NCBI GenBank assembly: GCA_963575745.1
Contig: CAUYUJ010000174.1
Location: 62,001-117,216 of the forward strand
Reading direction: 5' to 3'
Length of the DNA: 55,216 bases
Origin: Prorocentrum cordatum
Lineage: Eukaryota
Both the position numbers and the translations under genes were made by a program. Positions 17,856 to 55,216 of this stretch are shown in pieces. A model generated the notes under the pieces. That model made no database searches. It saw nothing but the letters and a program-made list of their open reading frames with translations, and was not told the origin of the DNA. How positions within the stretch are numbered: the stretch's first letter is position 1; every line of letters starts with the position of its first letter.

Positions 17856-19099
17856 CTCTGCGAGCAAAAAAAAAACCGACGGCGGGGGTCTGGGGCGGCG
17901 GGGCCCACGAACCCTGAGGCCTGGAGGCTGGCAAAGCTGCCCGAAGGAGAAGAAAAAACAAAACAAACAAACATTAAGCATCAAAAACAAAGCAATGAAG
18001 ATAAAAACATCAACATAAAAACAGACAAACAAAAACAATATAAAACCATCAAACAAAAAAAACAATACATCAAAAACGAAACAAAACAAACCAAAACAAA
18101 AACAACACAAACAAACATCAACAACAAAACATCAACAACACATCAACAACAAAACAATCTAGATACATCAAGCAAAAAAAAAAACAATACAACAAAACAT
18201 CAAAACATCAACAAAACATCAAAACAAAAATTAAACATCAACAACAAAACAATATAGATACAAAAGGCCCTGGTCCGCGGCGGGGCCTCGCACGCCCGGC
18301 CTCGCAGGCGGACCGTGGCGCTCTCTGGACGGCCCGGGGGGGGGGGCGGGGGCCGGCCCGGAGGCGACCAAAAGTCATCCGGCAGCCCGACTCCTCTCCT
18401 CCTCCTCACTCCTCCTCCTCCTCCTCCTCCTCCTCCTCCTCCTCCCTGCTCCTCGTCCTGCTCCTCCTCCTCTCCTCCTCTTCTCCTCCTCCTCCTCCTC
18501 CTCCTCCTCCTCCTCCTCCGCCTCCTCCTCCTCCTCCTTCTCCTCCTCCTCCTGCTCCTCCTGCTCCTCCTCCTCCTCCTGCTCCTCCTCCTCCTCCTGC
18601 TCCTCGTCCTGCTCCGCCTCCTCCTCCTCCTCCTCCTCCTCCTCCTCCTCCTCCTCCTCATCATCCTCATCCTCCTCCTGCTCCTCGTCCTGCTCCCTCC
18701 GTCCTGCTCCGCCTCCTGCTCCTCCTCCTCCTCCTCCTCCTCCTCCTCCTCCTCCTCCTCCTCCTCCTCCTCCTCCTCCTCCTCCGCCTCCTCCGCCTCC
18801 TCCGCCTCTTCCTCCGCGGCCTCCCTGGCCGCCTCCGTCTCCGCCTTCTGCGCCGCGCTCGCCCTCAGGCCGGCCGGTCGGCGCCGCGAGGCCTCGCTCG
18901 TCCTCCTCCCTTCTCCTCCTCGGCGCTCCTCCTCGGCGCCCCTTCCCCGCCTGCTCCTCCTCGGCGCTTCTCCTTTCTCCTCCTCGGCGCTCCTCCTCGA
19001 CGCTCCTCCTCGGCGCCCCTTCCCCGCCTGCTCCAGCAGTGGTCGTGTTGCAGCGCAATGCTGTCGTCGCGCCAGTGCCTGTATAGGCGGCGAGAGGCC

Positions 19100-27744: not shown

Positions 27745-27915
27745 TGTCCCACTCGCGGCGGAACAAGTTCCTGGGCCCTCTTCTCCCTGGGGAGCGAGCG
27801 TGGCCTTGGTCCTCGGAGCAGGGCCGCCTGGAGGCCTCGGAGCCTGAGCTGCCCTGCACGGCCTGCCCTGGCCCCTCAGCGTCCTGGGGGGGCCCTATAG
27901 TACGGAGTCGTAGCG

Positions 27916-28986
27916 CTAGAGTCGCCGTAGCCGCTTCGCCTGCCCCTGGAACAGCGCAACGATCGCTGCGGCCCACTGATCTTCCGACACCTCCGAGCCC
28001 CAGCTGGACATGAGCTCGCGGACTCGCTTGTTGGTCCCGCCATCGTCGAGGTTCTGGGCTGGTTCGGAGTCCTCCTCCACGCGGGCGTCTCCCTCAACAG
28101 CGCCCCCACCATGGCCAGCAGGATGAAGGCCGTCACCATGCACATCGCGCTGGCCCCCAGCGCGATCCGAGACCTGCTCCGTGTACCCCTTGAGCTTGTC
28201 GAGGGAAGCTTTGAAGGCCTCCGCGTCTCCTTCAGCTGAGCCACCTCCCCCACCTGGCTCACCAGGTGCCAGCAGCTTGCTGACGAGCTCGGAGAGCTTG
28301 GCCACCTCGTCCCAGACTGCTGGCGGGGCCTGGGTCGGGGGTGGCTCCGCGCTGGCTGCCCCCACACGCTGGACCGCCGTTCGCCTGGCCTCCTCGAGCT
28401 CCTCCTGCGCCTCCCGCAGGGCCTCATGGGCCTTCATGCACTCCAGAGCTGCTTCGCGAGCAGCCTCCTCGGCACTGGAGACTCGCTGCGTGGCCTGGAA
28501 CACTTTGTTCTGGGCCTTGGCGACCTGGGGCGGCAGGTCCGTGTGCTGTCTGGGGTCCTGCAGGCATGCAGCTCTGAGCTTGCGGCGGAAGACCAACTTG
28601 TCGCGCTGGCTCTGGGACAAGCAGGCGGCGCCGATCTGGAACTCCTTATCGCCCATGGCGAGCCAGAACTCCGTCTGCCGCTCATCGAGCTGCTCATCGA
28701 GTTGCGGCTGCGCCGCTGCACCTCCTTGTCCCCCTCCATTATTCTGGTAGTTCGTGTCCTTGCCGCAGCCCTTGCCGTGCCCCCTGCCGAAGCCGCCCTG
28801 CCCGCTGGAGTCGCGCCATGATGCTCCGCGTAGGCGCTGCTGGCGATTCCACTGGCCCTGCAGCGGTGGTGGCGGTCGGTTTGAGGCTGGCACTGGCCCC
28901 TGTGGGTTGTATCCTCCACAGTTGAAGCACCTCTGCTTATTACCACGGTTCCATGCATTGCGCTGCCGACAGCCCCAGCCCACCAT
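27916..28986 (-). CDS. LINE B ORF1: RanBP2-like zinc finger (one Cys changed to Arg) plus coiled coil
   Basis: ATG at 28986; WGCRQRNAWNRGNKQRCFNCG; heptad A/E/Q-rich region; lies between the SL and ORF2. Confidence 0.8.
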   Translation of the reverse strand: MVGWGCRQRNAWNRGNKQRCFNCGGYNPQGPVPASNRPPPPLQGQWNRQQRLRGASWRDSSGQGGFGRGHGKGCGKDTNYQNNGGGQGGAAAQPQLDEQLDERQTEFWLAMGDKEFQIGAACLSQSQRDKLVFRRKLRAACLQDPRQHTDLPPQVAKAQNKVFQATQRVSSAEEAAREAALECMKAHEALREAQEELEEARRTAVQRVGAASAEPPPTQAPPAVWDEVAKLSELVSKLLAPGEPGGGGGSAEGDAEAFKASLDKLKGYTEQVSDRAGGQRDVHGDGLHPAGHGGGAVEGDARVEEDSEPAQNLDDGGTNKRVRELMSSWGSEVSEDQWAAAIVALFQGQAKRLRRL

Positions 28987-29139
28987 TGCACGCGGTGTCT
29001 GGGGAGTGGGCCCACTGAAAACTCTTGGGACGAAATGGTTGCGGGCGAGGCCGCGAACCTCTGGCCACGAGACTCGCGGGGACAAAACCTGACACGCCTC
29101 AATCTCTCGAGCGAGGTTGGGAAGTCCAGGAGCAGGCCA

Positions 29140-29161
29140 CTTGAGCCAAAATGGCTACGGC
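29140..29161 (-). other. Complete dinoflagellate spliced leader GCCGTAGCCATTTTGGCTCAAG at the LINE B 5' end (retro-copied)
   Basis: 22/22 match to DCCGTAGCCATTTTGGCTCAAG; followed by TG rather than the GT donor of an SL RNA gene. Confidence 0.96.
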
Positions 29162-29676: not shown

Positions 29677-30585
29677 ATGGGGTGGACTTGGAATCAGACC
29701 CAGTCACGCCCCAAGAACTGCCGCCCATATGTGGTTTGCACGTCCTGTGGCGCCTGGCAGTACACTTCCAAGGCCAAGAAGAAAGTCTGGTGCAAGTGCG
29801 GCGAGCCCTTCCACATCCCCGACGCTGGTGGTAAAAGCACCCAGCCCAGTCAGGCGAACGAGAAGGGCGCGCCGCAGGACCAAGATATGAAGTCCATCCT
29901 CACTGCGATCCTGGGGGTGCTCAGTGACGCCCAGAAGCAGGAGCTCGGGCCCGCCGCCCAGTCAGCAGCGGCGCTCGTGACAGAGAAGAAGCCCGCCCCC
30001 GCCGCAGCTGCAGTGGCAGCTCTCCAGCGGGTGCGGCAGCACGAGAAGAAAGTTGCAGAACTTGATATCCACGTACAGGAGTTGGAGACCCAGCTCCAGG
30101 CCGCCAAGGATGACCGCGCCAAGGTAACCATTGAGTTGCAGGAGGCGCGCCAGCAGTTCGAGGCGGCCAGCCAGCAGGCCACCGCCCAGTGGGGCGCCGC
30201 CGCCGCGGCCGAGGACGCCATGGAGGAGGACGAGGAGGCGGCGCCCAAGGCGGCCCCCGCGGCCGAGCAGCCCAAGGCCAGCGTCCCCGAGCTGCCGCCA
30301 GGGCTGCGCGCCGCCGTCAGCGGCCTGCAGGGCGAGGACGCCGAGCAGGCCCAGGCCTTCGTGCAGCAGCTCGAGGCAGCGACCAAGGCGGGGAAGGCAC
30401 CACCGCCGAAGCGGCCGCCGCCCACGCGCCAGGGCGCCGCTGGCGGGCCCGCAGCCAGCGCAGCGGGAGGAGCGGATGACGATGGCAGGCGTGGTCGCAA
30501 GACCGACAAGTCGCCCGTTCCCCACCGCAGCCGCAATGAGCCCAGGGGCCGTGGGGGGGCCGCAGGCGGGGGCCAGAGGGACTGA
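29677..30585 (+). CDS. LINE A ORF1: CxxC...CxC zinc ribbon plus coiled coil
   Basis: First ATG after the SL remnant; CTSCGAW...WCKCG; KKVAELDIHVQELETQLQAAK. Confidence 0.85.
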   Translation: MGWTWNQTQSRPKNCRPYVVCTSCGAWQYTSKAKKKVWCKCGEPFHIPDAGGKSTQPSQANEKGAPQDQDMKSILTAILGVLSDAQKQELGPAAQSAAALVTEKKPAPAAAAVAALQRVRQHEKKVAELDIHVQELETQLQAAKDDRAKVTIELQEARQQFEAASQQATAQWGAAAAAEDAMEEDEEAAPKAAPAAEQPKASVPELPPGLRAAVSGLQGEDAEQAQAFVQQLEAATKAGKAPPPKRPPPTRQGAAGGPAASAAGGADDDGRRGRKTDKSPVPHRSRNEPRGRGGAAGGGQRD

Positions 30586-30655
30586 CCGTCTCCCCGAGCC
30601 GGCAGCAGGGCGCACAGACGCGCCCAGCAGCCCCCCCGCAGATGGGGCCCAGCAT

Positions 30656-33600
30656 ATGTTCACCAACGATCAGCCGATAGCAAGTTTCACTAGTCTCGTC
30701 ATCAGCCAGCCGGATGACATCATTAGCCTCAGCGACAGCAGTGAGAGTGACCTTGTCAGTTTTGACCCGTCCGTCGTCTGTGTCAGTGCCGCGGGAGATG
30801 CAGGACACCAGGATGACCAGGATGGGAGGGGAGAACAAGGAGGGGAGCCACTCATGCTGTATCTCGCCAACATCACTAGCTGGCACAAGAAGGCCAGGGA
30901 CTACGTTCAGTCCAGCGATTTTGCGCGGCCGCATGTCATTATGTTTAGTGAAATGCACGTTCAACGAGATAAACTGCGTGACGTGCATAAATTCATGAAG
31001 AAGCAGGGGGACAGGTCCTACGTCTGCCCAGCTGTCAGGACTTCGGCGACGGGGTCTCATGGAGGGGTAGGCCTCTTCGCCCTGCGCAGCCTCTGCTCCC
31101 ACGCCCGCATCATGGGGGCGAAAGGACGTGACCAGCCCCTCTACGGTGGGCAAGGGTGGACAGCTTGCCACCTCCGCCTTCGAGGGCACAGCCTGATTTT
31201 GGTTTCCACTTATCTGCAAAGTGATGCAGGATATAATGAGTACAATACGCAAGTGACCAGCCAGATCGCCACCTTCCTCAGAGCCCACAAGCTGCCCTTT
31301 ATCATCGGGGGGGACTGGAACATGACAGGGAAGCAGCTCATGGAGGGGGGCCTCTGGGTGAAGACCATAGGTGGGGTCCTCGTCGAGCCGAAGGTAGACT
31401 CCACCTGCAACGGGCGGGTGATTGACTTTTACGTGGTGTCTGAGAAGCTAGGTAGGCTCATGCAGGTCACCCCAGATCGCACCAGTCCATGGAGGCCCCA
31501 TCTTGGGTTACGAGGAGAGTTTCAAGTAGAGGTTCGCAGCAAGCACAGCACGTACCCCGAGGAGGCCCCAGATGTCAATATGTTAGGTGCGGCGCCGCGG
31601 CCGTGGGACGAGCTCCAGGTCCTGGCTCTCCAGAAGTTCCCCGAGGCTCCAGAGGTCCTACATCCCGTAGCACAAGCGCATGTCGACGACACCCTCACGC
31701 ATAGGTTTGCCGTCCTCTCGCAGGCCCTGGAGTGGTGGCGCTCGGTTCCAGACCTGGGAGGGCCAACCCGGGCCCAACCCTTCCGCCTGGAGACGCGGGC
31801 GGCTTTCAAGCCCAACCCTCCAGAACCAAGGGGGGGCCCCGAGAGCCGAAGGTGGAGCACCATCCAGCAGAGAGTTCGGGAACGGGATCTTGCCAGGAAG
31901 CGTGACCCCACAGGCCCCAACCATCGGAGGCTCCAGAGGCTCATCGAGGCTACCGTCGTCGACCTAGATTGGGACTCAAACCTCGCGGATGACCAGCAGT
32001 GGGCGCTCTGGCACAGCCTGAGGGAGAGGTCCAGCGAGCCTTTCCCCTTGCACGACCTGCTAGAACAGCAGGTGCAGTTTTACGAGACCCGCGCGCTGAA
32101 GCAGGCCCAGGACGGTTTCGCGGACTGGTTGGAGACCAGCATCAAGCGAGGGGGTGGAGCCGCCCACGCCTTCACCAGAGAGATGGAGGTAGAGGTCACC
32201 CCCGAAGAGGCAGACAACCTGGTCCTGGAAGAAGAGGTCCTCATGGACCCCAGCGACATCCTTGAGGCCAAAAGCGAATTCTGGCAGCAGTACTGGGACC
32301 CTCAGAAGATCCAGGCCACGAACCCCATCTCGGCCCCGTGGATCCAGGAGATACGGGAGGAGGCGATGGAGGACAAGGCTCTGGAGGCCCCCTGGACGGA
32401 GGAGGAGGTTCTGAAGGCCATCAGATCTTTCCCAGGACACTCGGCCACAGGCATGGACCAGTGGCGCGTACGAGATTTTGTTCGACTCCCAGGCCCAGGG
32501 CTCACAGAGCTCACGAGCATGTTAAACACCATCGAAGAGAATCAGTCGATGCCCGCCCAGTGCTTAGGGAACCTTGCAGCGCTCAAGCCGAAGACCGCGA
32601 CGGCGGATAGGCCGATCACGCCCACCACCTCCCTCTACAGGCTGCGCATGAGGATGAGGAGGGGGGAGATCGGCAAGTGGGAGGCGGCCAAGGCAGGACA
32701 CTGGGACGCGGCAATCAAAGGATCCAGCTGTCTGCGCGCAGGCATCGTTTCAGAACTTTTTGCGGAAGTGGGGACGGAACTCCAGATCAAAGTTGTCGAA
32801 GGGCTCTTGGACCTAGAGAAATTCTATGGCACCATCCTCACCCACGTGTTAGCGGCTAAGGCCAAAAAAGTGGGGTACCCAAGTATCTGTCTAAGTATGG
32901 GGATCATGACCCACCTAGCAGTTCGATATCTCACCGCGGAGATGGGGGTCAGCCACCCGATCATTCCCCAGCGCAGTATCTTAGCGGGATGCGGCCAACG
33001 CGTGGTTTGGACGCGAGTTCTGTTGCACGACCTCCTCCATCAGGCGCATCTCAGGTTCAGCCGTCTCACCCTCAGGACCTGGGTGGACGACCTGCGGGCC
33101 CGCATGGTCGGCTCGGCCGCGTCCCTGCTCCAGTCCTTCCCCGAGGCTATGAAGTTTATCAAAGCAGGGCTCGTAGATCTTGGGTGCAGGTTATCCCCGA
33201 AGTCGGCCCTCTTGTCGAATGACAATGACATCAGGAACCAGGTCCAGGACTCCTGCAAGCTCCACGGGATCCCCCTGCAGACCAAGCTGGGCACCAGGGA
33301 CCTCGGGTTGGACTCCACCGTAGGCAAGCGCAGGTACTTAAAGGCTCGCAGGGCTCGGCAGCGTCTGGGATTCAAGAGGCACAAGAACATTAAGAGGCTC
33401 CTGAGGGTGACCAAGAGTGCTCATCGTCTATATCGTGCAGGGGCTAAGCCACAGCTCCATTGGGGACTTGAGGGCCACGGGGTCTCCCCGACAGAGCTCA
33501 GCCAGCACAGGAGAGCAGCAGGGGCGGCCCTGGGGACCAGTAAACCAGGCAGTTGTCTCACCGCAGGGCTCCACCAGTCGAAGTTGCCGCCAGAGGCCCT

Positions 33601-35437
33601 GGACCCCGCCATCTTCCATCGCGTCAATATTTTTGAGATGTGGTTCGAGCTGGTGGAGACCCAGCCGCACCTCAGGAATGGGATCGAGCTCGCCTGGCCC
33701 AAGGTGGTCGCCAAGCTCCAGCGGCCCAGGCGGTGGAACAATGTGGTCAGCCATCTCAGTGCCGTTGTGGCCACTCTCCTCGGCCTGGGGTGGCAGCCCG
33801 ACTCAGCCTGGGCCTGGACAAGCCCAGTCGGCCAGGTTTTTCGAGTCCGACCTGGGAGTCTCCAGGAGCAAGACTATTTCATGTGCAGATTCCAGCAGTT
33901 CCTCCACCACCGAGTCTGGAGTGGGGCCCAAGGGGGACACGCAGCAGGAGGGGTACAGGATGGAATCGATATCAAGAGTTCGCGGTGGCAGATCGAACGG
34001 GAGTATCGCGACGGACAGGAGAACCTCGCGAAGGCGCTCAAGGCAGTTTGTGCTCGTTCAGCCTGGAGCCCCAGGCGACGCTTCGAGGCAGGCTTAGCAG
34101 ACGACTCGGTTTGCCCGTTGTGCGGAGACCATCACTGCGATGATTATCACAAGTTCTGGGGGTGCCCGCTCCTTTTCCAGGCCGAGCATCCCCTCATTCA
34201 GGAAACAGAGGACCTAGTGGACACCGCTCAAGGGGACGACCAGCCAGCTTGTCTGTGGCTCCGAGGGCTCATTCCAGCAGGTCTCGCTCTGAAGGCTGTA
34301 GAAGACACCACACCTCAGCACCCCGTCCTACTTGGGACTGGCGCTTTCCTGGACCCTCCTGAGCCGAGGGGCGGTTGGCGCCTCGGTTCGGTGGATGGCT
34401 CAGGGGGTGCTGTCTCTTCCGATCCCCGCCTGAGGCGTGTAGGATGGGGTGCGGGGGTCTGGGATGAAGATTTAAACCTCCTTGGCACTCTCCGAGGGAA
34501 TGTCATAGGGCTCCAGACCATCAATCGGGCTGAGCTCAAAGGGGCCATCGAGCTCCTCAGGCACACCCAGGGCGACCTTATAGTGGTCACCGACTCGGCC
34601 TACCTCATCCGTGGGTACCACAGGGGTCCCCGTAGGCGAGCTCGTTCCAATCGTAGGCTCTGGGCCGAGCTTTGGAGGGTCCTAGGGGCTCGCACGGGCC
34701 AGCATCGGTGTCTTAAAGTAAAGAGCCATGCCACGGACACTGAGGTCCGCGCCCGTTTTCCCGCCTGGGCCCTGTATGTGAATGAACAGGCCGACGGATT
34801 CGCTGGACAGGCTGCCGCCTCTGCCGCCGTGCCCCAGGACCTGGTCGACCGAGTGCTGGCATTGGACACACTCGCAGAGCAGATCCGAGGGCGATTGGCC
34901 GCTGTCCAGATGATGTGGTGGACCCACTACCCAGTAGAAGAGGCTCCTGCTGAAACCAAGAGAGCTCAGCGTAAGGAGCGGAGTGACAAAGCTTTCCAGC
35001 ACCTTTTAGAGGTGACCGCTCACTGGCCCGAGGTCCGCGATGACCAGGTTTCCTCCGTCAGGTGCGGCAAGCAGACCCACAGGAGGTGCTGCGCTCGCTG
35101 GCTCAAGCTCCCTTGCCCCGCCGCCAGGCCCGCGGCGCGAGCGCAGGAGCCCTCCAGAGCCGCGAGTTCGTCACAAGACATCGGGCAGGAGGCGGCCCTC
35201 CCTGCCGCTGGAGGCCCGCCCCCCATCCATCCTAGCCACCGACCCCACCTCGCCGTCTGCCGTGGGGTCCTCTGGTGTCGGAGGTGTGGGTGCTGGAAGG
35301 TTCGGGCCTCCAGGAAATTCAAAGAGCAGTGCGCCCCACCCCGCAACAGTCAGGGTGGGGGGCACAAGGCCATTTTGAAGCTCACCAAGGAGCAGCTCCC
35401 CCCAGGCCTCAAGGAATGGCCCCGAGGGAGCTCGTGA
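30656..35437 (+). CDS. LINE A ORF2 polyprotein: APE endonuclease, RT, zinc finger, RNase H, C-terminal Cys/His motif
   Basis: LANITSW, FSEMH, GGDWN, RVIDFYV; LDLEKFY, ILAGC, TWVDD; CPLC..H.FWGCP; VDGS, TINRAEL, VTDS, KVKSH, NEQAD; HPSH..WCRRCG. Start taken at the first ATG after the ORF1 stop (uncertain). Confidence 0.95.
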   Translation: MFTNDQPIASFTSLVISQPDDIISLSDSSESDLVSFDPSVVCVSAAGDAGHQDDQDGRGEQGGEPLMLYLANITSWHKKARDYVQSSDFARPHVIMFSEMHVQRDKLRDVHKFMKKQGDRSYVCPAVRTSATGSHGGVGLFALRSLCSHARIMGAKGRDQPLYGGQGWTACHLRLRGHSLILVSTYLQSDAGYNEYNTQVTSQIATFLRAHKLPFIIGGDWNMTGKQLMEGGLWVKTIGGVLVEPKVDSTCNGRVIDFYVVSEKLGRLMQVTPDRTSPWRPHLGLRGEFQVEVRSKHSTYPEEAPDVNMLGAAPRPWDELQVLALQKFPEAPEVLHPVAQAHVDDTLTHRFAVLSQALEWWRSVPDLGGPTRAQPFRLETRAAFKPNPPEPRGGPESRRWSTIQQRVRERDLARKRDPTGPNHRRLQRLIEATVVDLDWDSNLADDQQWALWHSLRERSSEPFPLHDLLEQQVQFYETRALKQAQDGFADWLETSIKRGGGAAHAFTREMEVEVTPEEADNLVLEEEVLMDPSDILEAKSEFWQQYWDPQKIQATNPISAPWIQEIREEAMEDKALEAPWTEEEVLKAIRSFPGHSATGMDQWRVRDFVRLPGPGLTELTSMLNTIEENQSMPAQCLGNLAALKPKTATADRPITPTTSLYRLRMRMRRGEIGKWEAAKAGHWDAAIKGSSCLRAGIVSELFAEVGTELQIKVVEGLLDLEKFYGTILTHVLAAKAKKVGYPSICLSMGIMTHLAVRYLTAEMGVSHPIIPQRSILAGCGQRVVWTRVLLHDLLHQAHLRFSRLTLRTWVDDLRARMVGSAASLLQSFPEAMKFIKAGLVDLGCRLSPKSALLSNDNDIRNQVQDSCKLHGIPLQTKLGTRDLGLDSTVGKRRYLKARRARQRLGFKRHKNIKRLLRVTKSAHRLYRAGAKPQLHWGLEGHGVSPTELSQHRRAAGAALGTSKPGSCLTAGLHQSKLPPEALDPAIFHRVNIFEMWFELVETQPHLRNGIELAWPKVVAKLQRPRRWNNVVSHLSAVVATLLGLGWQPDSAWAWTSPVGQVFRVRPGSLQEQDYFMCRFQQFLHHRVWSGAQGGHAAGGVQDGIDIKSSRWQIEREYRDGQENLAKALKAVCARSAWSPRRRFEAGLADDSVCPLCGDHHCDDYHKFWGCPLLFQAEHPLIQETEDLVDTAQGDDQPACLWLRGLIPAGLALKAVEDTTPQHPVLLGTGAFLDPPEPRGGWRLGSVDGSGGAVSSDPRLRRVGWGAGVWDEDLNLLGTLRGNVIGLQTINRAELKGAIELLRHTQGDLIVVTDSAYLIRGYHRGPRRRARSNRRLWAELWRVLGARTGQHRCLKVKSHATDTEVRARFPAWALYVNEQADGFAGQAAASAAVPQDLVDRVLALDTLAEQIRGRLAAVQMMWWTHYPVEEAPAETKRAQRKERSDKAFQHLLEVTAHWPEVRDDQVSSVRCGKQTHRRCCARWLKLPCPAARPAARAQEPSRAASSSQDIGQEAALPAAGGPPPIHPSHRPHLAVCRGVLWCRRCGCWKVRASRKFKEQCAPPRNSQGGGHKAILKLTKEQLPPGLKEWPRGSS

Positions 35438-37312: not shown

Positions 37313-40300
37313 ACCAGGGCTAAATCAGAATTTGACCTCCCAGGAGTTGCATCCGAACATGCGTACCTGTCTGGAGGTCACAGTCCGAAAGAGATCCTGG
37401 GCGAGAGCCGCGATGCGACAAGGAGCCGCCCCTCCGCTCGTGCAAGAGGCGCTGCAGTTGACCAAACGCACGCCGCCGGACGTCTGGGCCCGAGAAGGGG
37501 GGGGGCTGCCCTGTGGAGGCGGGGGAGGGCCACGGGACCTAACAGACGCTGGTGTCCGAGGAGGAGGAGGAGGAGGAGGAGGAGGAGGAGGAGGAGCAGG
37601 AGGAGGAGGAGGAGGAGGAGGAGGAGGAGGAGGGAGGAGGAGAGGCGGAGGAGAGGAGGAGGAGGAGGAGGCAGCAGGAGCAGGAGGAGGAGGAGGAGGA
37701 GGAGGGAGGAGGAGGAGGAGGAGAGGGAGGAGGAGGAGTAAGGAGGAGGAGGAGGAGGAGAGGAGGGGAGAGGGAGGGGGATGCGGAGAGAAGGAGGAGG
37801 AGGAGGAGGAGGAGGAGGAGGAGGAGGAGCGCGAGTGAGGAGGAGGAGGGGCAGTAGGAGGAGGAGGAGGCGGAGGAGGCGGAGGAGGAGGAGGAGGAGG
37901 AGGAGGAGGAGGAGGAGGAGGAGGATGGAGGAGGAGGAGGAGGAGGAGGAGGAGTAGGATGGAGGAGGAGGCAGGAGGAGGAGGAGGAGGAGGAGGGAGA
38001 GGCGTGAGCGAAGGAGGAGGAGGAGGAGGAGGAGAAGGGAGGAGGAGGAGGAGGAGGAGGGAGGAGGAGGAGGAGGAGGAGGAGGAGTAGGAGGAGGAGG
38101 AGGACGAGGACGAGGAGGAGGAGGAGGAGGAGGAGGAGGAGGAGGAGGAGGAGGAGGAGGAGGAGGAGGAGGAGAGGGAGGAGGAGGCAGGAGGAGGAGA
38201 GAGGAGCCCGGCCGCCGAGGGTCGACGCGTGACTGGTGCGCAGGCGGGCTCAGGCACCGATGGCGACGGGGCTCTCCTCCCTGGGAAGGGTGCGCACGCC
38301 AAGCACCAGTCGGCACCCAGGCCCAGATGGCGGTAGGTGCAGGAAGGAAGCGGCGGGGTAGAGCACTTTTCCTCCGCTGGCCAGGCGGCGCCACCGCAGC
38401 GAGCGATCGCACGGGGCCCCAGCCATCTTGAACTCCGCCAGGCGGTGCAGGCGGGAGGGAGGCTGCCCACGGCGAGCAGCTTGCAGGGAAAAGCGCCCGG
38501 CTCAACGGAAGGGCGACCGAGGCCAGCACATGCAGCGTGCAAGGATGCGAGGCAGGGTCTACTTTTTGACTCGGCGGCGCCAGCGGATGCTGGCGCGATC
38601 GTCGGTTCGGGCGGGCCACGCCCAGCGAGTAGCGCAGGAGCGGGTGGAAAAAGAGAGGGGAGGAGGAGGAGGAGGAGGAGGAGGAGGAGGAGGAGGAGGA
38701 GCGAGGAGGAGGAGGAGGAGAGGAGGAGGAGGGGGGAGGAGTAGGAGGAGGAGGAGGAGGAGCAGGAGGGGGAGGAGGAGGAGGAGGAGGCAGGAGGAGG
38801 AGGAGGAGGATGGAGGAGGAGGAGGAGAGGAGGAGGGGGAGGAGGAGGGGGGAGGAGGACGAGGAGTAGAGGAGGAGGAGGAGGAGGAGGAGGAGGAGGG
38901 GGAGGAGTGGGAGGAGGAGGAGGAGGAGGAGGAAGAAGGAGGGAGGAGGAAGGAGGGAGGAGGAGGAGGAGGAGGAGGAGGAGGAGGAGGAGGAGGAGGA
39001 GGAGGATTGGAAGGAGGGAGCGGGAGAAGTCCGACCGCCGAGGGTCGACGCGTGAGTGGTGCGCAGGCGGGCCCAGGCACCGAACTCGGGTGTGCAGCAA
39101 GGTCAGGGTACACGGAGGTACACAGAGGTACACAGTCAGGGGGACGTAAGACCTGGGTACAGGGAACTCGGAAATCCCCGACGAGGTCGTCAAAAAAAAG
39201 ACGAGGCCGAGCCTGCATTTTGACGAGGCCTCCCGCTGCAGACATCCCACGAAACTCCTCCTCGTCAAAATCCGAGGCGCGGTCGTCAAAAAACGATGGC
39301 GAACCCGAGTCCTGGCAAACCCGGGTCTTACGCTCCCCCGACACAGGGGTACAGAGAAGAGGTAAACACTGTCCCCCGACCATGTCTTGAGCATTTCTGA
39401 ATATTCCCCCTGTAGGGGGACATGCCCTTTGAGCAGGGACCGACCGTCCCGGCATTCCTGTAGTCCTACCACGAAATGCTCTTAGAACCCAAAGATGTGC
39501 TAGGAACAACAACAAGGTTCGTAGAACATAAACCCGATGTGGTAAAACAAGACAGTCCCCGCCAGAAATGTTCCAAGAACATTTCGTGCAAACCACAAAA
39601 GGTTCTAAGAGCATTCTTTCGTAGGCCTACAGGGACGCCAGGACGCCTCGCGCACGCATTAGGCCAAGCTCTGCAGGGGCAAGCGGAGGTGCTCCGGACG
39701 GCGCCGCTGCCGCGGCGGCAGCGGGCCACGAGTTAGAAAGAGAGACGTAGAGAGAAAGACCGGCGGAGGCCATCGTGGCCGCATCGCGCGCGCAAGGCCT
39801 TCGCCTGATCCTCGTTCAGCGTGGACAGCACTCCGTATATGACGGGAACCTGGCCGATGGGGTAGGGTGAAAGAGAGAGAGAGAGAGATAAAGGGGTGAT
39901 ATTGCATGCCTATGTTCTACATATATATACATACATGTGCAAACATGTGTAGACACACACATATATATATATACACATACACAAATATATACATACATAT
40001 ATATATATATATGAAAATGGAGAGGCCGGATGGTCTTTCACCGTCCCTGTGGGCGTGGTTGGAGTGGGGTTCCGCGGGGCGGATTGGTGTTGTTGCGTTG
40101 TTGTTGTCGTCGTCGCCATCGTCGTCCTCTCAGAGCGAGGAGGCCGAACGGTCATTCGCTGTCCCTGGGCGCGTGGCTGATTTGGGGCTCTGCGATGCGG
40201 ATTCCTGTGGTTGCGTTGTTGTTGAACTCGACTACTGAAAAATGATGAATGTTGATCCCCTCACTCCGGCGCACATTGCATGTTTTTACTGAAGTGCCCC

Positions 40301-41794: not shown

Positions 41795-43128
41795 CACACC
41801 ACCACCAGAAACCACCACACCACCACCACCACAACCACCACCACCACCACAACCTACCACCACCGCAACCACCACCACCACAAACCACTACACCACCACC
41901 ACCACCGCCACCACCACCACCACAAACCACCACAATCAACCACAACCACCACCACCACCACCCAGCACAAACCACCACACCACCACCACGACAACCACCA
42001 CCGCCGCCACCACCACCACAACCCACCACCACCACCACAAACCAACACACCACCACCACTACCACAACCACCACCGCCACCACCACCACTACCACCACCA
42101 CCTACCACCCACGACCACCATCGGCAGCATCACCACCACCAACACAACAGCCCACCACCACCACCACCAAAACAAACCACCACGCCACCACCACCACCAC
42201 CAGCACCAGCACCAGCACCAGCACCAACACCACCACAACCCACCACCACCACCAAAAACCACCACACAACCACCACCACAGCCACCACCACCACCACAAC
42301 AACCCACCACAACCACAAAAACCCACCACCACAGCCGCCACCAAACAACCCACCACCAACCCACCATCATTACACCAACACAACCACCGCAATCCACCAC
42401 ACCACCACCACCACCGCCACAACCACCACCACCACGACCACCACCACAACCCACCACCACCACCACAAACCACCACACCACCAGCACCACCACCACCGCC
42501 CGCCACACAACCACCACCACCACCACCAAAACAAACCACCACGCCACCAGCACCACCACCACCGCCACAACCACCACCTGTAACACCACCACAACCTACC
42601 ACCACCACCACCACCACCACCACAAACAAACAAACCACACCACTACCGCCACCTACACCACCACCACCGCCACTACCACCACCACCACCTCCACAACCAA
42701 CGACCACCACCACCATTGCCACCACAACAACCACCACCAAGCACCATCACCACAACCACCACCATCGCTACCGCCACCAGCATCACCACAACCACCACCA
42801 CAACCACCACCGCCACAACAAACCACCACCACACCACCACCACCACCACCAAAACAAACCACCACGCCACAACCAACTACCACCACCACAACCACCACCA
42901 CCACAACAACCACCACAACCACCACCACAAACCACCACACCACCACAACCACCACCACCGCCACCACCACCATCACCACCACAACCTACCACCACAACCA
43001 CTACCACCACCACAACCACCACCACAAACCACCACACCTCTACCGCCACCACCACCACCCCCACAACTCACCACCACCACCACCACAAACCACCACACCA
43101 CCACCACCACCACCACCACCACTACCAC
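41795..43128. repeat. 1.3-kb degenerate (ACC/AAC)n microsatellite
   Basis: Direct reading. Confidence 0.95.
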
Positions 43129-48100: not shown

Positions 48101-50450
48101 TGGCACGAGATCGACTGAAATGTGAACGAGGAGGCTGAATCACATGCTGCAAGACGCGAAGGTGAGGAGCCAGTCCGGCCTCGGCTAGGTGGTGGAACCA
48201 ATTTTCATGGAGAACATATGTAGTTCAACATCTGCGGTGCAGTCTACGTGGTGCACTTGTTTTTCATATATAGAAGCAACTCAAGAATGCCGCGCTCTTG
48301 CTGACGTCCCGCCCACCCACCCGCAATTGGTTAGGCAAACCTCATGCGGCCGCGGCCGCGGCTGGCGCGTCTCCGCGCAAGCGTTGGCGCGCGTGCGCTC
48401 TACGCAGGTCGGCCGGCTGGCATGGCAGGACTGACGCGACCACGATTGCGGCGGCCGATGGAACTTCTCAGCGCGTCTCAGAGGCCGCGGGCTACTCGGT
48501 GCATGTCGGCGACTCGGGCGGGCGCGGCAGCGGGACGACGTCGACGGCCGCGGCGACGCGACGAGGGGGGCCATGGCAGAGGCACTGAGGACGACGACGA
48601 CGGCGAGTCCATAAGACGCCGACGATGACGAGGATCACCTCAATATGTCGATGACGAACGCGATCGTGCCGGCAGCGACGGCAATGGCGGCGACCCGCGA
48701 CGACGTCTGCGGCAGTGGCGCGATGACGTCGATGAGGGCGACGGAGAATAGCGCGCGCGTAGAAATTCTAGAGGACCTGGCAGACGTTGCCGTTGAAAAG
48801 CAGAATGGTTGCATAGGTTGCTGGAGAGCCTTATCTTGAAACTCCCATTGAGAACCTATGGTTTCGGAAAGATATTTCGACGCGCGCTCGCGGCGGTGGG
48901 CGCATGTGGCCCGCGTGGCGTTTGTGGCCAAGGGTTCGCGACCTGGGAGCAGGACAGAGCATCGCGACTGCACCGCGCGGCGAGATGAGATCGAGGCTTT
49001 GACGAGATCGTGAACATCATATGGGTTCCGCATGATTTCGGCCATTGCGCGCGGGCAGGATACCTGCAATACTTTGATGTACAACCATTGGGTTTTGAAG
49101 GCTTGTCCGTCGAAGCGCATGCAAACGCAATGTGCGTCGGAATGATTTTGACACGCGCGCACGTGCGCTCTTTTGTACTTTCGGAAAGGACGACTGACAT
49201 ATGCTATATAAAGATAAACGAATACGCGCGCATGGAGTTTGCTGCAGAATACGAGGGAGGCGATGCCACTTGAGCTGGCATGGTACGAACTTGCGAATGG
49301 AATCAACGGGTCAGCAACGTCCCCAGGGGGGTCGATCACCCCGGAGGCGGGGGGTAAAGTCGTGTTCGTATAAAGAAGGGGGGCTCTATGTGATGCGATC
49401 GACTGGCAACTGGCCTGCCCCGCGCGCGACCACCTCCCATGCTCGCGCGAGCACCCCACCCAGCCGCCCGCAACTGGTTGCGAAACCACAAATGCGGCAG
49501 CGACTGCGACGGCTGCTCGGCGCCGGCCGGCGCATCGCCGCAGCCGCGCTCTGCGGGCGCGGGCTCGCGCGCGGAAGGACCGGCTGGTCTGGCGCGACCG
49601 ACGCGGCCGCTGCGGCGCCGACCGCCGGGCGCTTCCCAGCGCATTTTGCACGCCTCGCTGGCGCTCGGGCGCGTCAGCGCGGGTCGGTGCCTCGAGCGGG
49701 CGCGGGGCCGCGGCGACGTCGACGCCGGGGGGTGCGACGACGAAGGCGTGGAGGCAGCGATGCTGGCGACGGCTGCGACGGAGACGACGGCGAGGCCGCA
49801 GACGGCATCGATGCTGATCGCGCCGATGACGACGACGGTGCCCGAGGCGACGAAGGCTTTGGGGCCATTTTGACGCCCGCACGCCGCCGACGCGCGCGAG
49901 CGGCGCGCGTGGGAATATTTGACGAGGGTCGCGCCGCCCCCCCGCACGCGCGCAATGGGCGCCTGAATGACTTGCACGCGGGCGCGCGAGAGGCAAGTCT
50001 GGTCGCGCGGTGAAAGTACGGAGGAACAGTGCACAACGTCCCGAAGAACCAGCAGCAGCGCGCAGACTGAATTGAATTTTCAGAACGCAAGACGGCTGAT
50101 GATTTGCAAGTGTTTGGGACACTCGAGTTTGAACTCCCTGCGAAACTGGAGGCTCTTGGACCATGTCGGCGCGCGCGCGCGTGGCGACGCACGCGCGCGC
50201 GTGCGCTTCGCCCCATTATGTTGCAGTCTTTTGCTTCGGAAATTGACGGCTGCTGATAAACGCATGCGTGCGCATGGAATATTTGACAAGGGTGGCGGGG
50301 GGGGGGGGGGGGTCGACGCCGGCCGGGCTGGGATGGCGCGCGCTCATGCGGAAAGTTATGGAGGCGGCAGCGTCATGCGCACATTGGAACTCGCGTGGGT
50401 AAGGGGCTCAGTTCGGCTTCGGCGAGGCGGAATGCGGTCTCTTCTAGAAC
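43140..50450 (+). repeat. Degenerate tandem array of a ~1.0-1.3 kb CpG-rich unit (at least 5 copies)
   Basis: Anchor GCGCGACCGACGCGGCCGC...TTCCCAGCGCGTC...GATGCTGATCACG recurs at ~43207, 44519, 47381, 48425 and 49592. Confidence 0.8.
45284..45635 (+). repeat. Tandem duplication of a ~180-bp unit
   Basis: GCGCCAGCCAAAGCGAAATGAAGCAACCCAGCC... occurs at ~45284 and ~45468. Confidence 0.85.
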
Positions 50451-51099
50451 AGGATATATATGTGCAGTCATGTCTGCGTGTTGTTATTAATACGATCAGT
50501 GTTATTCGTTATTATTACACTCTGAGCTCTCTCAAGTATATATATTATATATATATATATATATAAGGCTTCCTCTTTTAAAAAAAAAATCGCGCGAGAT
50601 GCCGCAGCGGCGGCTGACAGACGACGACGACGGGAGACGGACGACGACGACGACGACGACGACTCTGCAGCGGTGGCGCGGACGACGTTCGCGAGGCGAC
50701 TGGAGACGGAAAAGGGCGGGGCCGCGCCAGAAAACGCACGACTCTGTTTGTGTGGGGGGGGGGGGCAGAGCTGTCGCTGCAAAACCAGTGAGCTTGGAAT
50801 GTTGGGGCGCTTGCAATCGCGACGAGCGCTGAAATGATTCCCGCACGCGCGCGAGCACTTTTTTGGGGGGCAACGGGCTCCTGGCATATATATATATATA
50901 TATTTACACACATATATACATGTATACATATATATATCTCCCGCCACCTCCAACTCCTCCTGTCACCTCCGCTGTTTCTTGCTGCGTTTCCACTTGCGTC
51001 AACCAGCCAGATCTTTCTCCCCGGACCCGCCCCCCAGGCCCCCATGAGAGCCCACAGGACCCCAAAGGACAACACAGGACTTCACAGGTTGCCACCGCA

Positions 51100-51670
51100 C
51101 GCAACAAGCTTTTCAGTGGGTTGTCTTCCGATTCGGCAAGACCGCGCGTCCCCCTACAAAATATCGCCGGGCATGTACTTCTCTTCTGCCCTTGACACCC
51201 CCGCCTCCTTCAATCACTTGCGTGTACTCAAAGCGCATCGTACACTGACGATCCACCCGGAAGCGTCATTGCCTCTTCGCCTTCTCGCCAATATTTTCGA
51301 CGGCTTTTCTCGCTCGGCCGTCACGTTTTGCCGAGATCGGTCTTCCGCGCCAAGCAACACCCCCGCACATTATGCGTTGAATCCCCGCCTCCGTCAGACA
51401 GGATCGAAATGCGCCCAGAGCTATTGCATCCTTTCGGTGTGCCCTACTCGCACACCGCCCTTTAGACCCCACGAGCATTGCATCCATACCGCAAGTCTGG
51501 CTTGCGCATGTCGAATGTTCTTGAAGTGGCTTCCGCCATTCCGCCGCCCCCCAGAAGAACTTCCGACCATCGTGGAAGATGCATGCTGGCCATCGGCCCC
51601 GCCCGCCATTGTGCCTGGGCTGTGGGAGATACCACGTTGGGGCATACAAGAGTCGTTGTAGATGCCTTTC
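51100..51670 (-). pseudogene. Possible ISXO2/IS1595 (Merlin-like) DDE transposase C-terminal relic
   Basis: One minus frame read through stops gives PGT...ADGQHAS...SHFKNIRH...GVRVGHTERMQ*LWAHF..*RRRGF, echoing the family pattern PG..I.(S/T)DG..AY..H..VNH..G.HT..IE..W. By eye only. Confidence 0.3.
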
Positions 51671-53364
51671 AAGGCCCTCTGGAGGACGCTAGGGAACATC
51701 TGGATAACGCTTATGAGAGTTATTCCAGGTCCCTGGAGGCCTCTTCCGGCACCTCGATACCTTCTTGAGGTCCTTCGGGGCGCCTCCGGGGCCTCTGCAA
51801 GGCTCGAGGACCCGTTTTAGGACAGATAGCTCCTCATGTGAAGTCGTCTTCTTCTCTTTCGCCCCTCTAGCATCCTCTTGGGCCGCTTTGGGATATTTGG
51901 ACATCTCTAGAGCTCCTCTTCGACCCCCAAAAAGGGATGCAATACACTGCAGGGACGCCCACTCATCTCACACACCTTTGCGCACCTACCCAGCAGAGTT
52001 GAGCGGATCTCACACGCATTCCGAATGTGACTCCGGAGCCATCTGGGTCGAGCGTTTCAGCCCCTGTCTCCTTCCATCATCTTTCGCATTTCGACCTGCT
52101 GTGCCATCGAGCGCTTTGCGCAAGCCCTCCGCCACCCCATCACATTGCGTCTGGCACTCGAGAAGAACCCTAAAGACCCCTACCAGCCTAACGATCCCGT
52201 CAGGACCTCGCACCATGTTACAGAACCACACAACAAAAACACTTCTCACTGGAACATCAAAACCCCACACGCCCCACAGCACTCTACAGGGCCCCTCTGG
52301 ACCTCCCAGGCTCCAATCGGAGAACACAAGACCCTTCAAGCCTTCCAGGCCCCGACAAGCTCACCGTACTTCCCAATACCCACACACACCTTTCGCACCC
52401 TACGGGACGCCACAGGACCGCATAGGACAACAATGATTCCAAAGCACCCCAATATTACCTGACGCCCCACCGGACCTCACTGAACCGTGTGCCCCATCAC
52501 AGGCATCAAAAACCCAACGCGCGTCCACATGATCTCATCACGCCACGCGGGAGACCGCAGGACCGAACACGACTGCAGAACCCAAACGTGCCCACATAGA
52601 ACACCAAGGTGCCCCCCAGAACACCAACGATCACCCACAAAACTAGACCCCGCCAGACCCCACCGAAGTTTCAGTCCCGACGAATCCCACAAAAGCCGAC
52701 AGGATTCCGTAAGACCCCAGAACCTCGACGCGACCACAAAAACACCAAGGTCGCCCCCACGACATTTCAAACCTACATCTTGCAAAGCTTCCGAAGTCCA
52801 CACAGGACAACGCAGCCGAAGTGAGAACCCGGCGAACTCAAGACCCCCAAAACCGAGAATGCACCCGACTATACCCAATAAGACCTTTCCGGACCCCACA
52901 GACCCCGCACACCTTTTCGCGGAGCAGATGTTTCTCCACTGGCGGCCACGCCGTCACGAGACAACACCATCTCTTATATACTTTAGGGCGCTGCCTCTGG
53001 GTGCGTGGAGTCGTGCCTCTCAGCCCCTGTCTCCTCATCCGCGTTGTTACCTCCACTTCCTCCTTATCGGCTCTCCGCTGTACCATCCAGACTGTTAGGT
53101 CACCTCCTCCGCCGTAATCCCACCCTGTCCTTTCGTTGCTCTCCCTCTCTTTATCTTCCACCCTCTGCTCACTTCTCTCCGTCATCGCCGCTCCGCGCAC
53201 CTACCCCCTACACCACGCGCCTCTTGCACTTCACCCCGCTCCCTTCCCATAATCGAACAATCCTCTCCCTTCCTTCCTTCTCCCGCGTCTGCTACGCTCC
53301 TTCTCCTACTGTTTCGCACGCCTGTGGCCCTTCTTCGGGTTGGCGACGATCCCATTCGACAGCG

Positions 53365-54826
53365 ATGCTGGACTCCAACGAGCAAAAATCAATACGGTCA
53401 GCCTCGTCTGAGGGCGTACTGGGCGTTGTTTGCGACAAAGACCTTCTCACGTATTGGCATTTGATGTTGCCCTGCCGCAGTTGTATGAGTTACGCTGCGT
53501 GCAAAGATATGTCTCACTTCCCCATCTGTTTTCTCGACGGCAGCTGTTCTTACAAAAAAACACGACCGCGACATTTTCTTGAACGCCGTGCAAAAACGGA
53601 AGAATGGACGAAGAGACATGCACCATTGGATTCCGATAGACAAGTTGCCTGAAGCATTCCACCTACCCAAACTCGCAGACACCATCCAGCCCGAAGTGGA
53701 CCATGATTTCCGCACGCGGAAGCTGAATCACTTTCATCCGATCCTTGACAATACAAGCGCCACCAAGCACTACCTACTGATGGCGAATAAGAAGCAACCC
53801 TTGACGACGTTGGCGCTGTTCATTTTTATGTCTACTTTGTACCTTAATGAGGGCCACTACCTGGTCACGGTCTTAGCCGTTTATCACTGGTTAGCGCACC
53901 AGAAGCAATCTCGACAAGAAATCGTCGCCAGCAGCGCTGCCCGGGACAAGCTCCAAAGCCGCCTCCTGGACGTTCGACGGCACATGTCCGCAGACGAAAA
54001 ACTACCTGCCTTGATCTCCACAGACGCCTACACTGTGCAGCGCTTCTATGATGCTTTGGTGCTTTGTGAGACTCTGTACGGACGACAGCCAGATGCCGGC
54101 TACCACTTGCCGAGCTTCACGCCCGGCGTCGATTCGAAACAGTTGTTGGGCGAAGGCGTTGGCACCAAGCCCCACCGCGTGGCTGTTCGCATGCATCACA
54201 TGGCCCAGACCTTGACGGAACACCAGGCTACCCTGACCGGTAGCCCTGTGCTCATGGTTCAGATGACGAAGACGCTTCTCGCCACCCACGCTTCGTGGCT
54301 CCCGTACCAAGCTCAACTGGTGTATAAACGATTCTTTGAGAGTTCATTCGGCACACTCAATTGGCACCAATCAATTATGTCTGAGCTCACATTTATGGAA
54401 CACGTCGGAGACGGTGACTTCTACTTTTTGAGACACCTGTGCCCGGCGGCCTTCGACATGTACAATGCTCTCGCTGATAGGGAACCCACTGATAGTGGCA
54501 AAAGAACAGTGGCTGCCAACGTCACGCAAGCAGAAAGGGAGCTTGGCCGCACGCTGGTGCAGATGCTGACGTCGCGGCAACACTCCATGGGCCTGCATTG
54601 CCGCGTTAACGCGTTGTTGGGCATGGACCTCATGGATTTTGATGAGACACAATACACGATCTGTGAGAATCGAACTTTCCTGTGGGGGTCCCGCATGCGC
54701 AAGAAAATGGCGACAGACACGTGGCTCCACCAAATGCGCTCCGCGCACAGATCCTGGCACAGAGAAACCCTACTCCCCTTCGTGTGGGGGGCCGTGGCCT
54801 TGCGCGACGGCAAGCGTTCGAGGTGA
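53365..54826 (+). CDS. Intronless ORF with one apparent frameshift (within 53579-53652); putative aGPT-PPlase clade 1 / 5-hmdU DNA kinase helical-domain-like DNA-modification protein
   Basis: The 415-codon stop-free, non-repetitive frame 53579-54826 overlaps an upstream frame starting at ATG 53365. Ordered motifs: FLERR, DHDFRTRKLNHFHPILDNTS, ISTDAYTV, WLPYQ, VGDG..FLRHL, ETQYTICENRTF. Coding status is well supported; the family call is by eye. Confidence 0.6.
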
Positions 54827-55216
54827 TCCTATTGTCTTTCCTGTGAGCCACGCCTGTCTAGACTTCCGCGTCCCCGCCTGCTTACGCCAACGCCGTTGCT
54901 GTTCGTGGGGCCACCGTGCCATCGCTTTCTCTTCGCAAGAAAAGTCACTCCTCATCCTTCTCCTCCTCCTCCGCCTCCTCTTCCATCCCCTCGCCCTCGT
55001 CGTCGCCGTCGCCGCCCCCAAACCGCCCTACCCAACCTGTATTCTAGGCGACGAAGACAGGTCGCCGGGGGCAGGGCCTGCGGCGAGCGCGACGGGAGCG
55101 CCCGCGCTTGCCGTCTCATCGACGAAGCCATGGGCCAAGATTTAAGGCGAAGCGGAGCGAGCCTTCAAAATCTTGTATATATATATATACATATATATAT
55201 ATATGAGATTCGCGAG

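Follow-up and report, generated by a model that had tools for sequence, protein, structure and literature searches.

A dinoflagellate gene for a predicted helix-hairpin-helix protein that may be a very distant relative of phage thymine-hypermodifying enzymes

Introduction

The aGPT-Pplase enzymes (alpha-glutamyl/putrescinyl thymine pyrophosphorylases) of phages are, to our knowledge, the only ones that perform chemistry on the C5 methyl group of 5-hydroxymethyluracil (5hmU) in DNA. Two phage clades are considered here. Clade 1 corresponds to the Pfam family PF18723 (HMUDK_hel) and comprises M6 gp55, PaMx11 gp50, ViI Vi01_130c, the C-terminal half of SP10 gp186, and proteins of phiRSL1 and PhiW-14. 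Clade 2 corresponds to PF18724 (ADDT/AADT/PUGT) and comprises PaMx11 gp46 (PDB 8z2m), M6 gp51, ViI gp247, and PhiW-14 gp109. In clade 2, a Cys and a nearby Glu are essential, and the Cys attacks C6 of the base (PMC8989533); Cys247 of gp46 attacks C6 of 5-phosphomethyl-dU (5-PmdU) (PMC11472151); and a further enzyme of this clade uses C226 for catalysis and D25, E222, and T223 for metal binding (PMC13458397). Here, we analyzed a 55,216-nucleotide stretch of the Prorocentrum cordatum assembly GCA_963575745.1 (contig CAUYUJ010000174.1, positions 62,001 to 117,216 of the forward strand), referred to below as the window. An annotation made earlier from the sequence alone, hereafter the original prediction, had proposed a homolog of these phage enzymes at positions 53365–54826 of the window.

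We know of no work on how dinoflagellate 5hmU is read, removed, or elaborated. According to PMC11572971, 5hmU replaces 12–68% of T in dinoflagellates, which also contain 5-hydroxymethylcytosine (5hmC), and the dinoflagellate TET/JBP enzyme that makes 5hmU was identified in 2024. No paper in the literature searched ties the aGPT-Pplase superfamily to dinoflagellates, and the term 'Pplase' is absent from PMC11572971.

Our analysis gives a slightly better than even chance to the following account. A nuclear gene of a dinoflagellate, intact and contained in one exon, encodes a protein of approximately 486 residues, which is a very distant relative of the aGPT-Pplase enzymes that is closest to clade 1 and acts through an invariant Cys. 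The evidence for this account, the results that weigh against it, and three competing explanations are presented below.

Results

The gene is a single uninterrupted frame in marine copies

In the window, the gene is assembled as two overlapping frames on the plus strand (53365–53652 and 53489–54826). The upstream frame extends over 52987–53652 and contains an ATG at 53365, and the downstream frame is open from stop to stop over 53489–54826 (445 codons). The two frames join at a run of seven A residues at 53554–53560, which is the source of an apparent frameshift. The gene itself is present in marine metagenomes, and 18 public sequencing runs are listed as carrying it, none of which is an RNA run. 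Four of these runs were compared over 52800–55150, and three of them (X1, X2, and X5) reach the A-run. In the contigs of all three, the run is one A shorter, with the letter dropped at 53554, and the word depth of X1 over the run is 28.8. Since six A residues are found in all three covering runs, the natural gene is one uninterrupted open reading frame (ORF) of 486 codons plus a stop codon at 53365–54826. The apparent frameshift either arose in assembly or exists only in the copy that was assembled, and the gene in its marine copies is an intact single exon, in agreement with the original prediction, which had called the ORF intronless.

The protein sequences of the relatives described below are consistent with this reconstruction. 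The upstream frame encodes the segments G..G..D.D.L..HL.LP.R...S and FPICFL..C, which correspond to the N-terminus of the relatives, and the relatives resume in the downstream frame past the A-run. The homolog P0004 begins at the equivalent Met, and its alignment runs through both frames; the limits at 53365 and 54826 are therefore correct. The GC content of the gene is 0.54 (0.61 in the window), and its distribution over the three codon positions (0.57/0.40/0.67) is coding-like. The predicted ORF and its limits proved to be real, as judged by the Met of P0004, the codon-position GC content, the 47 relatives of the protein, and the confident structure model of the family (predicted local distance difference test, pLDDT, 89).

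Five substitutions, at 53501, 54033, 54129, 54237, and 54549, also separate the short-read contigs from the window, and the runs agree with one another wherever they cover these sites. All five sites are second codon positions, where A in the reads stands against G, C, T, C, and G in the window. Two of the read-supported substitutions bring back residues conserved in the family, namely D in place of V in a 'DDD' patch and N in place of T in 'LN.SP'. All six disagreements between reads and window involve A, the sixth being the extra A in the A-run, and four of the substitutions precede C. Such a pattern suggests that base calling or assembly erred systematically at A (T on the opposite strand), conceivably at modified bases. 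A diverged paralog is an alternative source of the differences.

The protein belongs to a conserved family with a dinoflagellate host

When 1.84 billion cluster representatives were searched exhaustively with phmmer, 47 relatives were recovered with E ≤ 1e-3, including 29 with E ≤ 1e-10 and seven with E ≤ 1e-30. The best relative has an E-value of 8e-69 and is 37% identical over residues 23–423. The top two relatives, of 470 and 503 residues, are 37% and 36% identical over nearly the full length, and many of the remaining relatives are fragmentary. At least two subgroups can be distinguished among the long members, which share 20–38% identity with the protein encoded here. One metagenome contig bears a 96% copy of the relative P0003 that is unbroken over 470 residues, and three further contigs carry partial sequences of the family. 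The GC content of the metagenome contigs bearing the family ranges from 0.43 to 0.52, and this spread indicates that several organisms carry it. These proteins form a conserved family, probably of marine protists. The metagenome contigs provided four short loci, none with a neighboring gene. Two near-identical contigs (L013 and L014) contain within 2.1 kb only a piece of the family of about 110 residues (query residues ~258–363) at about 770–1200. This piece is either an exon of a gene that is split by introns elsewhere or a gene fragment.

Other searches for relatives returned little. Neither a set of 2.9 million viral contigs nor the contigs of prokaryotic genomes contained one, and a scan of the viral contigs using PaMx11 gp50 returned PaMx11 itself only. 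A word-indexed protein search gave nothing from the protein and P0048 alone from the alignment, and a search for longer relatives gave only P0050, a chimeric sequence described below. The ESM Atlas yielded no usable match for the protein, and its scores of 0.75–0.76 for P0003 were uninformative.

The host was identified from two features. A relic that matches the dinoflagellate spliced leader exactly over 21 nucleotides lies at 29140–29160 on the minus strand, where 0 matches are expected by chance. In addition, P0050, a 1072-residue protein labeled Prorocentrum cordatum, joins a glycoside-hydrolase-1 fragment (residues 221–352) to a piece of the family (409–519). This piece is 69% identical to residues 310–420 of the protein studied here and covers only the C-terminal third, including ICENR; P0050 is probably a chimeric annotation over a partial paralog or a gene fragment. 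The relic and the paralog fragment identify the host as a dinoflagellate and thus confirm the 5hmU-containing lineage assumed in the original prediction.

A helix-hairpin-helix glycosylase-type fold is predicted

AlphaFold2 applied to a 48-sequence alignment of the family gave a model with a pLDDT of 89.2, a predicted template modeling score of 0.88, and 22 helices. The model spans the region from the Lys just past the A-run to the C-terminus, with an N-terminal segment of about 60 residues lying outside it. A single-sequence AlphaFold model had a pLDDT of 38 and was discarded. When the family-based model was compared with solved structures using VIA-align, rows 1–25 of 50 were all of the helix-hairpin-helix (HhH) DNA-glycosylase type, including the phage 5-PmdU glycinyltransferase gp46. 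The structure matches include AGOG (7.3 and 6.7) and endonuclease III (6.5), and then NTHL1, Mag1, MIG, OGG1, MagIII, ROS1, AlkA, MutY, and MBD4, and a second structure comparison against the PDB agreed with an HhH-type fold. The protein is thus modeled as an all-helical protein of the HhH DNA-glycosylase type, the fold that the original prediction had named.

Foldseek found nothing in the PDB (best E 0.35, template modeling (TM) score about 0.1). Its search of BFVD showed 50 rows, six of which had probabilities of 0.47–0.96 and TM scores of 0.29–0.53; the other 44 had probabilities of at most 0.12 and query TM scores of at most 0.15. All six are HMUDK_hel or Pplase1 phage proteins. Two are named 'Pplase1 alpha-glutamyl/putrescinyl thymine pyrophosphorylase clade 1', and four are annotated as '5-hmdU DNA kinase helical domain' from Microbacterium phage Lucky3, a Nodularia phage, Ralstonia phiRSL1, and Delftia PhiW-14. 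The TM scores are 0.41/0.53 for the Nodularia phage protein and 0.44/0.51 for that of phiRSL1, with a root-mean-square deviation of 5.6 for the latter. The family proposed originally, HMUDK_hel/Pplase1, therefore supplies the only superposable BFVD matches among the rows shown.

The predicted fold could also belong to a divergent hydrolase with no special tie to the phage enzymes, either a base-excision DNA glycosylase (acting, for example, on 5hmU or another lesion) or a Qng1/DUF2419-like enzyme that hydrolyzes nucleosides or nucleotides. We regard this explanation as quite unlikely. Foldseek singles out HMUDK_hel/Pplase1 proteins in BFVD and retrieves no glycosylase or DUF2419 protein from the PDB, and none of the 19 family members scanned has a DUF2419 or HhH-GPD match in Pfam at E ≤ 10. 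Furthermore, a 12-sequence alignment contains no conserved acidic residue in the roughly 30 residues that follow the GxG hairpin described below; the catalytic Asp of HhH-GPD enzymes sits about 20 residues after the hairpin. The one fully invariant polar residue of the family is a Cys, and it lies in a CE motif common to the phage clades.

Motifs of the phage enzymes recur in the same order around an invariant Cys

A nine-protein alignment of phage HMUDK_hel contains 19 invariant columns, with the motifs F.N..R..D, R..N, A(Y), F.A(YQ)..D, GPG...G, and CE..KY. The present family keeps the PF18723 motif order (N, D, S, N, (G)Y, YQ, G.G, CE) colinearly, without retaining the R residues or KY. In the following, residue counts refer to the family sequences that cover each column.

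Motif I of the family, hD....KLNN...ILD.TS, is encoded at 53699–53758 and forms the core of the profile alignment described in the next section. It pairs with the phage motif 'DPil..kFcN..RE.DR.S', such that KLNN...ILD.TS aligns with kFcN..RE.DR.s, and reads DHD..KLNHF..ILDNTS in this gene. N80 is present in 19 of 21 sequences, D87 in 21 of 22, and S90 in 19 of 21, and the Asp ahead of the motif (hD) is found in 14 of 19. The F/YLNEGHY motif at 53840–53860 (N120, 18/20; Y124, 18/18) contributes the Asn of its fLN, which pairs with N107 in phage 'fR..N'. In YGRQP.aGY at 54077–54103, P201, G204, and Y205 are each conserved in 20 of 20 sequences, and its aGY pairs with the GAY of phage 'tGAY'. 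The HRF.VR motif at 54173–54190 (H229, 21/24; R230, 23/24) is specific to this family. At 54296–54316, W.PYQAQ (Y273, 21/21; Q274, 20/21) pairs through W.PYQ with FlAYQ of phage 'G.FlAYQ'.

The GxG element, presumed to form the turn of the helix-hairpin-helix, is encoded at 54404–54418 and reads VGDGD here and AGPG in most relatives, the latter pairing with the invariant GPG of the phage proteins. Its last Gly (G309) is found in 20 of 20 sequences, and the middle position is occupied by P in 13, N in three, D in two, and S in two of 21. The change from GPG to GDG, which had been raised as a caveat, is present in the gene and confirmed by the reads; being a minority form within the family, it is not a defect.

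The Q...ICE.R motif (54650–54673) reads QYTICENR in this gene, with the Cys codon at 54662–54664. Its ICE.R pairs with fCE..KY of the clade 1 motif 'E..fCE..KY', and the corresponding clade 2 motif is 'E T. L C'. Cys392 is present in all 28 sequences, and the following residue is Glu (E393) in 20 of the 28. The residue at position −4 to the Cys is Q in 17, E in eight, and H in one of 26 sequences, and position −3 varies. The sequences around the Cys are E-T-I-L-C in gp46, E-N-M-F-C-E in ViI 130c, and Q-Y-T-I-C-E in this gene. The original prediction had correctly flagged the replacement of the first Glu by Gln, which is shared by most members.

The part of the gene upstream of the A-run (53365–53553) encodes an N-terminal extension that is absent from the phage proteins and aligns with P0003, P0004, P0019, P0040, and P0023. 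It contains G..G..LD.D.L..HL.LP.R...S and FPICF..C.C..H, and the latter Cys/His-rich segment possibly binds metal.

The original prediction had listed six motifs in the order expected for the phage family. Five of them lie in the true frame at the positions assigned to them, and four (motif I, WLPYQ at 54296, VGDG at 54404, and QYTICENR) are paired with phage motifs in a single colinear profile alignment. FLERR (53575–53589) is read from the wrong frame downstream of the A-run and is an artifact. ISTDAYTV (54014–54037) does not pair with phage 'tGAY'; this pairing falls instead on AGY at 54095–54103.

Profile comparisons are suggestive and are weighed against contrary results

Profile-profile alignment with hhalign of a 12-sequence family alignment against the nine phage HMUDK_hel proteins gave a score of 23.5 (P 0.046) and was colinear over 245 columns. 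None of 60 block shuffles of the phage alignment reached this score (mean 14.8, standard deviation 2.2, maximum 21.0), and the reversed phage alignment scored 17.3. The 48-sequence family alignment gave E 0.14 against the same nine proteins. The family gave P 0.13–0.15 against 12 phage HMUDK_hel proteins and P 0.67–0.94 against four ADDT proteins. Comparison of phage clade 1 with clade 2 gave P 0.1; since the match between the two phage clades is itself so slight, the profile test is weak in this superfamily. No match emerged between the family and the single sequences of gp46 and gp50, or in the global mode. A search of the PDB with the family profile returned six chance-level rows. The phage HMUDK_hel profile returned one chance row and missed gp46, indicating that the clades of the superfamily are not linkable by plain hidden Markov models (HMMs).

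Direct scanning with the Pfam models placed the family outside both phage families. Of the 19 members scanned, none matches PF18723 (cut-off 25 bits), even at E ≤ 10, and none matches PF18724 (cut-off 26.2 bits). The positive controls were readily detected: nine phage proteins gave 5e-33 to 4e-83 with PF18723, with 5.6e-41 for PaMx11 gp50, and gp46 and M6 gp51 gave 1.6e-27 and 1.4e-46 with PF18724. The Pfam HMM comparison proposed as a check of the original prediction thus went against it, as no member has an HMUDK_hel or ADDT match at E ≤ 10.

Several further results weigh against a relationship with the phage enzymes. The protein has no match at E ≤ 10 among Pfam, PHROGs, or PDB sequences, and 18 relatives searched against Pfam at the same limit gave scattered sub-threshold noise without HMUDK_hel or ADDT. 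The hhalign significance is marginal, ranging from P 0.046 to 0.15 with the choice of alignments, and hmmsearch --max did not separate real sequences from shuffled or reversed decoys in either direction. The E-values of the BFVD matches are 0.07–1.1, and none reaches 0.001. At position −4, both phage clades have a Glu, which in clade 2 binds metal, but 17 of 26 sequences here, including this gene, have Gln. No kinase or TET/JBP protein was found when 111 long ORFs of the window (100 of at least 90 codons and 11 further long ORFs) were compared with Pfam, which returned only RVT_1 and RNase H; the original caveat that no partner kinase is visible in the window therefore holds. Eukaryotic genes need not cluster. 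Finally, clade 1 catalysis is itself unproven, and M6 gp55 of clade 1 was dispensable in the reconstituted reaction (PMC8989533). Given the lack of separation by HMMs, the sequence evidence is suggestive rather than decisive, and the case for the relationship rests on the fold and the colinearity of the motifs.

The dispensability of gp55 for the transfer would also fit a protein that is not an enzyme but a DNA-binding or base-reading module, such as a 5hmU reader or an accessory protein that makes the base available to a second enzyme, a role that phage clade 1 may also have. SP10 gp186 is listed as a fusion of a kinase and a Pplase domain in Table 3 of PMC5889632. In our scan, phiRSL1, PhiW-14, and SP10 each have one HMUDK_hel match, and that of SP10 lies inside a 653-residue open frame. 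The Gln that replaces the −4 Glu in most members and the absence of a partner enzyme nearby in the window point in the same direction. On the other hand, a Cys that is present in all 28 sequences and has an adjacent Glu in 20 of them is a more usual sign of catalysis than of binding, and conservation of the pocket motifs YQ, GY, and N/D/S is no less strict than in the phage enzymes. We therefore consider a purely base-reading role unlikely and retain a Cys-dependent enzyme as the preferred explanation.

The surrounding window is rich in repeats and retroelement sequences

A series of minus-strand ORFs (27919–29154, 26590–27894, and 24794–25927), the last of which matches RVT_1, has the spliced-leader relic at 29140–29160 at its 5' end. 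Judged by its sequence, this series looks like a leader-capped retroelement that was trans-spliced and then retroposed. Another retroelement is probably represented by an open frame of 1769 codons at 30128–35437 on the plus strand, in which residues 1435–1563 match RNase H and the rest has no Pfam match. The window also contains long, strand-biased trinucleotide arrays, with about 440 copies of (CAC)n and 117–213 copies of (GAG)n/(CTC)n. These arrays occur at 41797–43128, 37558–38206, 38655–39006, 18391–18815, and many other positions, amounting to 89 tandem-repeat rows in 55 kb. Rfam has no match in the window.

These surroundings raise the question of whether the gene is mobile or viral cargo, or a decaying pseudogene copy, with no role in the host. 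It has no intron and lies in a repeat-rich stretch with RVT_1 at 24794–25927 on the minus strand and RNase H within 30128–35437 on the plus strand. Moreover, a partial copy with 69% identity exists within the chimeric Prorocentrum cordatum model, and the assembled copy carries a frameshift. This frameshift is, however, missing from all three covering runs, and the nearest retroelement ORF ends 18 kb away. Within the window, the region 50000–55216 occurs only once, without direct or inverted repeats on either strand; the family proteins have no match outside the ORF, and no spliced-leader relic with up to three mismatches lies near the gene. The family has no relative in the 2.9 million viral contigs and is old and diverse, with long members 20–40% identical and contig GC content from 0.43 to 0.52. 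The lack of repeats in the window and of viral or prokaryotic relatives leaves the carriage on a mobile or viral element suggested by the original prediction without support, and we consider cargo or pseudogene status very improbable.

Discussion

Overall, the original prediction was sound with respect to the gene, its fold, its viral structural neighbors, four of its motifs, and its host, while Pfam membership, the mobile element, and two motifs did not hold. We infer that the family is homologous to the phage family in the strict sense. A DNA substrate, Cys chemistry, and a link to dinoflagellate 5hmU would follow by analogy with the phage enzymes. In a mechanism of this kind, the GxG hairpin would hold the DNA backbone, and a 5-substituted pyrimidine, which may be 5hmU, an activated 5hmU derivative, or possibly 5hmC, would be flipped into the pocket. 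The invariant Cys of ICE.R could then add to C6, as in the clade 2 enzymes, and the group on the C5 methyl would subsequently be exchanged or removed.

A more far-reaching proposal, which we consider rather unlikely, is that dinoflagellates, and perhaps other marine protists with this family, use a phage-type Cys enzyme of phage or bacterial origin on their own DNA, either to hypermodify 5hmU or 5hmC or as an 'eraser' that exchanges or removes the C5 group. The acquisition of a dinoflagellate protein from viruses has a precedent in DVNP. If the proposal is true, this would be a second eukaryotic system for tailoring 5hmU after base J, bringing either a hypermodified base new to eukaryotes or the missing eraser. 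The relationship proposed above would itself extend the aGPT-Pplase superfamily to eukaryotes through a clade that is invisible to current Pfam models. Iyer et al. 2013 is said, second-hand, to list cellular homologs, and an earlier mention of a eukaryotic clade is thus possible. The conserved family provides a concrete candidate for work on the fate of dinoflagellate 5hmU and gives reason to seek further modified thymines in dinoflagellate DNA.

Comparison with the known systems places the protein as follows. It shares the helix-hairpin-helix core fold with the HhH-GPD enzymes (EndoIII/NTHL1, AGOG, OGG1, MutY, AlkA, MagIII, MBD4, and ROS1), as seen in the best 25 of 50 VIA-align rows. It differs from them in having no conserved Asp after the hairpin, in that no Fe-S cluster motif was noted, and in carrying about 90 more residues in insertions. 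The DUF2419/Qng1 proteins (PDB 7u07, 7ugk, and 7ulc) are only 7–13% identical to it and are not matched in Pfam. They hydrolyze a free nucleotide.

Clade 2 is the only phage clade with proven chemistry, namely the attack of the Cys on C6 of 5-PmdU followed by transfer of an amine or hydroxyl, as given in the papers cited in the Introduction. The protein described here resembles clade 2 in its C-terminal Cys, which precedes the end of the aligned range by 38 residues here and by 42 residues in gp46. It differs in the profile-profile comparison (P 0.67–0.94), and it does not have the motifs DLDPIY, FGPW, and E-T-x-L-C-K-W-K in the form that they take in clade 2.

The differences from clade 1 include the eukaryotic host, the lack of a Pfam match at E ≤ 10, and the lack of an adjoining kinase or dUMP hydroxymethylase in the window. 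In addition, the family has an additional, Cys/His-rich stretch of about 60 residues at the N-terminus, the specific motifs NEGHY, YGRQP, and HRF.VR, mostly Gln in place of Glu at −4, and 'CE.R' in place of 'CE..KY'. Clade 1 nevertheless provides the closest likeness. The predicted all-helical, glycosylase-like fold is common to both, and the six superposable BFVD matches among the rows shown all belong to clade 1. The elements N..D..S, N, GY, YQ, GPG, and CE are colinear, the size is near that of the Ackermannviridae forms of about 400 residues, and the Cys lies 53 residues from the C-terminus here and 54 in ViI. We accordingly file the protein as a new, distant eukaryotic variant of the aGPT-Pplase superfamily that lies outside the Pfam families by their thresholds.

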